From: Candidatus Bathyarchaeota archaeon
Lineage (GTDB): Archaea > Thermoproteota > Bathyarchaeia > 40CM-2-53-6 > RBG-13-38-9
Assembly: GCA_963807605.1 (NCBI GenBank)
Contig: CAWECG010000001.1
Span: forward strand, 64,001 to 128,000
Direction: 5' to 3'
Length of the DNA: 64,000 nucleotides
Shown: positions 23,273 to 24,221 of the stretch, piece after piece
Layout of the letters: every line of letters starts with the position of its first letter
Numbering within the stretch: position 1 is the first letter of the stretch
Made by a program: the position numbers and the translations under genes
Notes under the pieces: model-generated
The model's database searches: none
The model's input: only the letters and a program-made list of their open reading frames with translations
What the model was told of the DNA's origin: nothing

Positions 23273-24221
23273 TCAAAGAAGCAAAGCTAGGAGGCTTTTC
23301 GTTGTGTGTAGTCTGTTTTCAGCTTGATCCCAAACCACGGATTGAGGGCCGTCGATAACCTCTCCTGTGACTTCCTCACCTCTTCGACAAGGAAGTGGAT
23401 GCATAAAGATGGCTGCGCTGGATGCTGAAAGCATTAATTCGGAATTGACTTGGTATTCCGGTAGGAAAGATCTCAGTCTCTCCTCTCTCTCAGCCTCCTG
23501 TCCCATGCTCACAAAGACATCCGTGTAGACAATGTCTGCTTCTGCAACTGCGTGCTTAGGGGATGTGGTGATGTCAACACTCGAACCTGTAGTCTCAGCG
23601 TTTTTTTTGGCTGTTCTCACGAATTCGGGGTCAGGCTCGTATATGGCTGGGCAGGCGACTGCTATGTTTATGCCCATCTTTGAACAGCCGATCAAGAGAG
23701 AGTTGCAGACGTTGTTACCATCTCCGACATAGGCTAAAGTGAGGTTTTCAAGGGTGCGTTTCTTCTCCCAGATTGTCATAAGATCTGCGATGGTCTGCAC
23801 AGGATGTTCCTTATCGGACAGACCATTTATTACTGGTACAGCCGAGTATCGGGCCAACTCATCCAGTGTGCTGTGTGAGGTCACTCTGGCAACTATTCCG
23901 TCAACATACCCGCCAAGTGTTCTGGCCGTGTCGGCTACAGTCTCTCCCCGGCCAAGCTGCAAGTCTAGCCAATTCAGATAGAGCGCATGCCCGCCAAGTT
24001 GACGCATAGCCACTTCAAATGAGGCTCTTCTCCGATCACCAAGGTTAGACCTCAGGTGATGTTCGGGTAGAGGGCTTCTGAAAGATCATAGCCAGACTCT
24101 TACTTGGAAGTAGCTTGGACATCCGTCTCCTCTTAAGATTCCTTGCAAACTTCAGGGTTCGCCAAATTTCACTATTCCCGTAGTCCTGCAGTGAGAGGAA
24201 GTCCCTTCCCTTTATCGACAT
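23273..24221 (-). CDS. argF: Ornithine carbamoyltransferase, interrupted by a 31-nt BHB intron (24030-24060); spliced product 305 aa
   Basis: ATG 24221 with AGGTGA RBS gives MSIKGRDFLSLQD...IFQKPSTRT. After removing 24060-24030 it continues RASFEVAMRQLGG...HPVQ...GDGNN...SMG...HPLPCRRG...QAENRLH. 949-31=918 nt = 306 codons. Confidence 0.93.
24030..24060 (-). other. Predicted archaeal BHB intron in argF mRNA
   Basis: CCGA-AC|A-TCACC-TGAGGTCTAACCTT-GGTGA-TCGG-AG|A: perfect 4-bp central helix CCGA/TCGG, two 3-nt bulges, inner stem TCACC/GGTGA; contains an in-frame TAA. Confidence 0.85.

Follow-up and report, generated by a model that had tools for sequence, protein, structure and literature searches.

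A predicted BHB-type intron in the ornithine carbamoyltransferase gene (argF) of a Bathyarchaeia family

An intron in the pre-mRNA of crenarchaeal cbf5 has reportedly been described from Desulfurococcales and Sulfolobales, by Watanabe in 2002 and by Yoshinari in 2006. The cbf5 introns of these two orders were also treated by Yokobori in 2009, cleavage occurs between the second and third residues of the bulges, and both splicing and its dependence on EndA have been shown experimentally (PMC2738675). As of 2020, cbf5 was the only reported archaeal mRNA with a BHB intron besides the case of HVO_1309, in which the motif lies in the 5' UTR (PMC7714728). BHB motifs have been divided into a strict hBHBh' class and a relaxed HBh' class (PMC6379350), and a lysine of the Aeropyrum pernix EndA (K44) is reported to confer activity on relaxed motifs (PMC5829648). 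In the searchable literature, the coverage of which is incomplete, we found no BHB introns in argF or in coding regions of Bathyarchaeia.

Bathyarchaeia of the kind studied here are abundant sediment archaea. Ornithine carbamoyltransferase (OTCase), the product of argF, is an enzyme of arginine synthesis, and its STRTR motif forms the carbamoyl-phosphate loop in the active site. We analyzed a window of 64,000 nucleotides (the whole stretch of DNA under study, to which all plain coordinates below refer) from a Bathyarchaeia genome, here called G000, in which argF lies on the minus strand and is split into two exons by an insert of 31 nt. The reading we favor, at a probability of roughly 0.88, is that these 31 nt are a relaxed (HBh') BHB intron in the pre-mRNA, which would be cut by an (alpha-beta)2 EndA, the exons being joined by RtcB.

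The argF locus and its predicted spliced product

The gene comprises the following parts.

24061-24221, minus strand: argF exon 1, which begins with the ATG at 24221, spans 53 codons and 2 nt, and ends on the AC of the Thr58 codon, matching positions 1-54 of PF02729.
24030-24060, minus strand: putative argF intron of BHB type, 31 nt, with an in-frame stop TAA at 24047-24045; relatives carry inserts at the same site.
23273-24029, minus strand: argF exon 2, which opens with the A that completes the Thr58 codon, continues as RASFE... and terminates at a stop codon (23275-23273), matching positions 54-148 of PF02729 and 2-157 of PF00185.

Read from the ATG at 24221, the frame of exon 1 is MSIKGRDFLSLQDY...LAMIFQKPSTRT; the unspliced frame passes through ...AMIFQKPSTRT into SPEV and ends at the TAA of 24047-24045. 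The remainder of the gene, which starts near 24029 and terminates at 23275-23273, sits in a different frame. This reading of both frames bears out what the initial annotation had reported of the locus, namely an insert at 24060-24030, an in-frame TAA and a change of frame. Excision of the 31 nt (24060-24030) generates a 918-nt open frame of 305 amino acids containing ...KPSTRTRASFEVAM..., in which STRTRASFE is restored and the motifs STRTR, HPVQ, FVSMG and HPLP stand in one chain. The spliced product consequently unites PF02729 and PF00185 with the motif series of an OTCase (STRTR/HPxQ/SMG/HxLP). The predicted exon junction reads ...CCCGAAC^AAGAGCC... in the spliced mRNA, and the predicted junction-spanning peptide is ...PSTRTRASFEVAMR....

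Pfam matches to both exons are significant (E-values of 7e-59 and 6e-31 for exon 2 and of 3e-10 for exon 1). The OTCace_N model (PF02729) is matched over positions 1-54 by exon 1 and over 54-148 by exon 2; since the two halves meet at model position 54, the join is exactly colinear. The Asp/Orn-binding domain (PF00185) lies whole in exon 2. With an open frame and Pfam continuity at position 54, the 305-aa product with STRTRASF that had been proposed from cuts by the EndA rule is upheld. Both bulges of the motif described below end in A, and boundaries of 24029-24059 are therefore equally possible, with an identical product. The gene is the only OTCase gene of the genome, in which the next carbamoyltransferase match is 28% identical, and argininosuccinate synthase (argG) is encoded in the same genome. 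Downstream of argF, on the same strand, lies a D-aminoacyl-tRNA deacylase gene (PF04414; 22427-23239, minus strand); this neighborhood is kept in intron-bearing relatives (L239-L244), and argF stands outside any arg operon.

The initial annotation had expected that standard pipelines would call such a gene a pseudogene. In public collections argF is instead mostly called as a truncated protein with no pseudogene flag. Public gene calls of all close relatives are N-terminally truncated (244-279 aa), some of the called N-termini (e.g., MGDRRRVSFE) read through the intron, and in at least one relative an N-terminal fragment of 58-62 aa is called beside the truncated argF. No spliced full-length form was found among 5.8 billion proteins, where all relatives of at least 69% identity were truncated calls derived from DNA. 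Given these truncated calls, automated metabolic reconstructions may score the archaea of this family (f1) as being without a functional argF, or may alternatively accept an argF protein that lacks the carbamoyl-phosphate loop.

The two called pieces could be taken at face value, as a 58-aa N-terminal peptide and a C-terminal protein of about 246 aa (starting at GTG 24013) that assemble into a split enzyme. Both open reading frames are indeed present, and there is at least one relative for which the two pieces have each been called as genes. The break, however, falls within the STRTR loop, which leaves STRT and SPEV on one piece while Arg59-Ala-Ser-Phe-Glu is lost; the downstream starts are unconserved and the called N-termini differ widely. 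Moreover, an insert of 30-34 nt with its structure kept is needless for an arrangement of two frames, and we give a split enzyme hardly any credence.

Fold, distribution and selection of the insert

The RNA elements of the motif are listed below.

24063-24066, minus strand: exon strand CCGA of the central helix (H), made of the third base of the Thr56 codon and the Arg57 codon CGA.
24032-24035, minus strand: intron strand UCGG of the central helix (H'), with 92.6% of cells paired.
24060-24062, minus strand: 5' bulge ACA, with the predicted cut between 24061 and 24060; invariant in 17/17 sequences.
24029-24031, minus strand: 3' bulge AGA (AAA in two sequences from metagenomes), predicted to be cut between 24030 and 24029.
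24036-24059, minus strand: inner helix (h') and hairpin, in which UCACC (24059-24055) pairs with GGUGA (24040-24036), extended by GAGGU/ACCUU and closed by a CUA loop.
24025-24028, minus strand: 3' strand AGAG of the outer helix (h), with its partner CUCU at 24072-24069; weak and unconserved in relatives.

The minimum free energy (MFE) fold of the region (-20.8 kcal/mol; z = -2.3 versus dinucleotide shuffles) yields the CCGA/UCGG helix, the ACA bulge, the UCACC..GGUGA hairpin and the CUCU/AGAG pairing. Two 3-nt bulges lie on opposite strands with a 4-bp helix between them. The layout of central helix, bulges and inner hairpin given by the initial annotation is thus recovered, except that the 3' site lies in a 2x3 internal loop with no clean bulge, because the AC at 24068-24067 is unpaired opposite AGA. 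The relaxed outer stem CUCU/AGAG that had also been proposed is present in the fold but is unconserved among relatives, and for this reason the insert is assigned to the relaxed (HBh') class; it departs from the strict hBHBh' arrangement in that two unpaired bases separate the outer helix from the bulge. A cut after the second bulge base at both sites corresponds to exactly the 31-nt excision, and the same rule leaves an open OTCase frame in 12 of the 12 spliced genes tested.

Motifs of this kind carry little information. A genome-wide scan for restoration of open reading frames (2.65 Mb; 4-bp helix, 3-bp inner helix, intron lengths of 12-120) returned about 35,000 matches, a number equal to that of controls in which the 3' cut was shifted by 1-2 nt. 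Addition of a codon-usage score still left the signal unseparated from the control; the score of argF was itself close to 0. A BHB-like motif with open frames, taken alone, is no evidence, and the argF case therefore rests on comparative evidence, which we judge to be strong for the putative intron. With the idea of a mobile element in mind, the genome was also searched with blastn-short, and no other copy of the argF intron was found in it.

An insert of 30-34 nt interrupts the same codon (Thr58, phase 2) in 17 distinct sequences, 11 of which are argF loci of family f1, to which the window belongs, and six of which are further metagenome sequences. In a comparison of 40 relatives from the same order, the insert is present in each of the 11 argF loci of f1 (genera g1, g2, g3, g5, g6 and g8), and all 19 loci of nine other families are uninterrupted; genera g4 and g7 of f1 are without argF altogether. 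Protein-based scans of genomes and metagenomes provided two more intron-bearing sequences (L124 and L127) versus 137 intronless OTCase loci, and contig look-ups provided four additional intron-bearing variants. When 401 Bathyarchaeia genomes were searched with a degenerate pattern allowing any insert of 19-49 nt between the flanking codons, 11 genomes matched, 10 of them in family f1 and G000 included, and the reversed control gave 0 matches in the same 401 genomes. The inserts are 30, 31, 32, 33 or 34 nt long; those whose length is a multiple of three carry an in-frame stop and the others shift the frame, such that no version among the 17 sequences can be read through by translation. As with introns of the cbf5 type, the gene is under selection, the position is conserved, and presence and absence are clean.

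The fold could be evaluated in the alignment of the 17 sequences, in which 13 proposed base pairs were scored for standard pairing. Standard pairs occupied 89.1% of cells, versus 26-46% when the 3' partners were slid. In the inner helix, three of the five pairs showed compensatory double changes (18 cells), including A-U to G-C in eight sequences and C-G, U-A and A-U at the fifth pair. None of 500 shuffles matched these 18 compensatory cells, a control that overstates significance given that the sequences are related. RNAalifold, run without a supplied structure, recovered both the central and the inner helix, together with the 3-nt bulge. The outer helix showed zero covariation, and each of its pairs was broken in 3-6 of the 17 sequences. 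The central helix has four pairs in 12 of the 17 sequences and three pairs with a purine-purine mismatch in the other five; it is backed by conservation only, because its coding exon strand cannot covary freely. The comparison of relatives for presence, absence and covariation of the insert, which had been proposed as a check, thus supports the intron, with 17 insert-bearing sequences and a covarying inner helix.

The coding sequence provides an additional line of evidence. We examined 70 alignment columns in which the amino acid is invariant in 12 genes and the degeneracy is at least 4-fold, and the three most codon-frozen were Arg57 (CGA in 11/12), Thr58 (ACA in 12/12) and Arg59 (AGA in 10/12). 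The most frozen codons of argF are exactly those at the predicted splice junction. In intronless relatives, Arg57 is mostly encoded by AGR and Thr58 by any ACN. Taken together, the alignments indicate that the RNA structure of the insert is under selection.

A stable hairpin directly after the break also brings to mind a translational bypass, similar to the hop of T4 gene 60, in which the ribosome would leave before the hairpin and land downstream on an mRNA that is never spliced. The insert contains a stop codon, and a take-off and landing pair could be formed by the Arg codon CGA ahead of it and a CGG close to its end. However, no landing codon matches ACA, the take-off codon is without a following stop, and a hop from CGA to CGG would generate STRRRASF here and STRKRVSF in L124 and L127, with loss of the universally conserved Thr and a residue that depends on lineage. 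The locus therefore holds no matched codons that would yield the conserved protein. A bypass also leaves unexplained the invariant AC|A and the constant complementarity of the 3' end of the insert to exon CCGA, and the same genome carries a cbf5 intron of a kind whose splicing is published for Crenarchaeota. We consider a bypass very improbable. A frameshifting reading of argF was rejected, as were the readings as a pseudogene, a hop or a split enzyme.

The possibility that a disruptive 31-nt insertion marks a dead and decaying gene, or an error of assembly, draws on the in-frame stop and frameshift and on the absence of argF in genera g4 and g7. Against it stands the insert at the same site in 17 distinct sequences, whose assemblies and samples are independent, which also answers the concern about an assembly artefact expressed in the initial annotation; copies of one contaminant are excluded because the loci are 60-87% identical. 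Wherever dS is unsaturated, pairs of spliced argF genes give dN/dS values of 0.06-0.17, far from the value near 1 that had been named as the sign of relaxed selection. The 300 codons are open after excision in 12/12 genes, both exons score in Pfam, and changes in the insert structure are compensatory. Since a gene with open frames, low dN/dS and no second OTCase in the genome is live, decay and assembly error are excluded, and we take their joint probability to be close to negligible.

In phylogenetic reconstructions, the intron-bearing argF genes of f1 form one clade (SH-aLRT 99). Sequences L124 and L127, which bear the intron, group with the intronless L131 in a separate and well-supported clade, and L131 lacks the insert cleanly (TCC ACT CGA ACT AGA GTC). 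The tree requires at least two changes in intron state, for example one gain and one loss. Between the genera of f1, synonymous sites are saturated and the proteins are about 70-80% identical. As saturation holds between intron-bearing genera, the putative intron is dated as older than the divergence of the f1 genera. Note that one intron-bearing argF (L209, G289:C176), identical to the metagenome sequence L124, is located in a 3.4-kb contig of a metagenome-assembled genome binned in genus g23, which belongs to a family different from f1. This genome has 7% contamination, and the other 22 genomes of g23 encode a different OTCase (45-51% identity), a situation that looks like mis-binning or lateral transfer. 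An intron restricted to f1, together with an intronless sister sequence, makes argF a tractable system for the study of intron gain and loss.

Splicing machinery and other interrupted genes

The genome encodes two EndA paralogues and an RtcB (575 bits). The genes of the two EndA subunits lie at L111:1453-2019 (minus strand) and L112:1261-1788 (plus strand). The closest matches of the alpha subunit are the corresponding crenarchaeal subunits 2cv8 (S. tokodaii), 3p1z_B (A. pernix) and 2zyz_B (P. aerophilum), and it aligns gap-free across the Crenarchaea-specific loop, with K41 opposite K44 of A. pernix. The second paralogue is without the catalytic His and resembles structural units. As a supporting point, the EndA of the host is predicted to be of the crenarchaeal (alpha-beta)2 type and able to cut relaxed motifs, so that the gene content would provide both a relaxed-motif EndA and an RNA ligase.

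The tRNA genes provide a similar indication. In this genome, which is 94% complete, ARAGORN detected only 28 tRNA genes, of which 22 contain introns and several are odd calls. A low count with many introns suggests a tRNA gene set that is heavily disrupted by introns, and ARAGORN probably misses many tRNA genes because their introns are multiple or non-canonical. One of the intron-bearing calls has the anticodon CUA (labelled Pyl; G000:C3:1121032-1121168, minus strand), and a Pfam match to an amidinotransferase/ADI-like protein contains one in-frame TAG (G000:C4:2573-3070, minus strand). Decoding by pyrrolysine or by a suppressor is a possibility here.

Other protein genes of the genome are interrupted as well. 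In cbf5, a 19-nt insert (G000:C3:1143681-1143699, plus strand; equal to L115:1483-1501) folds with CCCU/GGGG as its central helix, AGA as either bulge and GGCU-GAGA-AGCC as its hairpin; the catalytic Asp codon is cut after its first base, which yields GGTL-DPMVTG, and the position is that of the published crenarchaeal cbf5 intron (PMC2738675). This gene serves as a positive control within the genome. Inserts with BHB geometry were also found in EF-2 (31 nt; G000:C1:210688-210718, plus strand), where excision restores QIRNIGIIAHVDHGKTT, and in aIF5B (37 nt; G000:C1:148014-148050, minus strand), where it restores VVLGHVDHGKTT, both in the region of the GTPase P-loop. In nadE, the match to the NAD synthase model of Pfam breaks at positions 136/138, where a 35-nt gap lies between frames (G000:C3:875124-875158; L245/L246). 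At least five protein genes (cbf5, argF, EF-2, aIF5B and nadE) are interrupted in like manner, which suggests that splicing of mRNA by the tRNA machinery is common in this lineage.

Taken further, argF may belong to a genome-wide set of tRNA-type introns in protein genes of Bathyarchaeia that prefer the codons of the most conserved catalytic motifs (Asp, STRTR, P-loop), and mRNA splicing by EndA and RtcB would then be a regular layer of expression. We propose this tentatively and rate it somewhat below an even chance. A possible cause of the preference is that constraint on the protein holds the exon strand of the central helix constant. If the proposal is true, mRNA splicing is no curiosity of cbf5, and lineage-specific gains and clean losses could be dated on the tree.

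For argF, the favored reading entails the following steps. Exon CCGA (Thr56/Arg57) would pair with intron UCGG to form the 4-bp central helix, the covarying intron hairpin would provide the inner helix, and the splice sites would follow base 2 of either bulge, ACA or AGA. An (alpha-beta)2 heterotetramer of EndA, bearing the lysine of the Crenarchaea-specific loop, would cut both sites, and RtcB would ligate the exons to give CGA-ACA-AGA (STRTR) and the 305-aa enzyme; the unspliced mRNA would yield a 58-aa fragment at most. We infer cleavage and ligation in vivo by these enzymes at these bonds. The claim of the initial annotation that a real intron is removed at the RNA level receives comparative support from the same-site inserts, covariation, frozen codons, dN/dS of about 0.1, EndA and RtcB, and the cbf5 intron. 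Since an insert of this shape has been preserved at one and the same codon among relatives, the argF mRNA is almost certainly spliced.

Splicing could in addition be conditional, its efficiency gating OTCase synthesis along the lines of the initial annotation, whose coupling of arginine metabolism to EndA/RtcB activity is speculative, or the excised circular RNA could have a role of its own. An unspliced mRNA is untranslatable past 58 aa, and the intron has long been retained though clean loss is possible (L131). However, no sensor-like feature was found in the sequence, the intron loop is unconserved, and like introns in unrelated housekeeping genes (cbf5, EF-2, aIF5B and nadE) favor a passive and constitutive process. 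Such regulation is very improbable, and the predicted argF intron is most simply viewed as a constitutively removed passenger and no regulator.

Comparison with known splicing systems

The closest known system is the crenarchaeal cbf5 intron. Both are short introns in a coding region, interrupt the codon of a catalytic motif and present a relaxed BHB at the boundary; in both, bulge bases 2 and 3 are separated by the cuts (predicted in argF), the EndA of the host is hetero-oligomeric, and the intron is patchily distributed, its gain or loss being clean. The two differ in their genes and hosts, since cbf5 encodes an RNA-modification enzyme of Crenarchaeota whereas argF is a metabolic gene of Bathyarchaeia, interrupted in essentially one family. 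Furthermore, splicing and EndA cleavage of cbf5 have been shown experimentally, whereas splicing of argF is deduced from sequence. The argF intron would consequently represent the same mechanism in a new host gene and lineage, and a conserved intron in a gene of central metabolism would extend BHB mRNA introns to a new gene class and lineage.

The motif also resembles the non-canonical (HBh'/BHL) tRNA introns of TACK archaea (PMC6379350, PMC5829648), with which it shares the 4-bp helix, the 3-nt bulges, one weak or missing flanking helix, the size range, and an EndA of (alpha-beta)2 type with the Crenarchaea-specific loop. Unlike in tRNA introns, the argF exons are mRNA, amino-acid coding fixes the exon strand of the central helix, and an error of 1 nt would destroy the frame. 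The BHB of HVO_1309 in Haloferax volcanii (PMC7714728) similarly makes an mRNA the substrate of the splicing endonuclease, as is predicted for argF. That motif, however, is located in a 5' UTR, its euryarchaeal host has an EndA that is homodimeric, and no frame is interrupted (PMC7714728). Finally, splicing of HAC1/XBP1 by IRE1 and RtcB in eukaryotes is likewise free of the spliceosome and removes a short frame-changing intron from an mRNA in which paired stem-loops mark the cuts, with ligation of RtcB type in metazoans. Unlike argF, it depends on the IRE1 nuclease and on regulation by ER stress and is without BHB geometry, and the likeness is one of analogy only.
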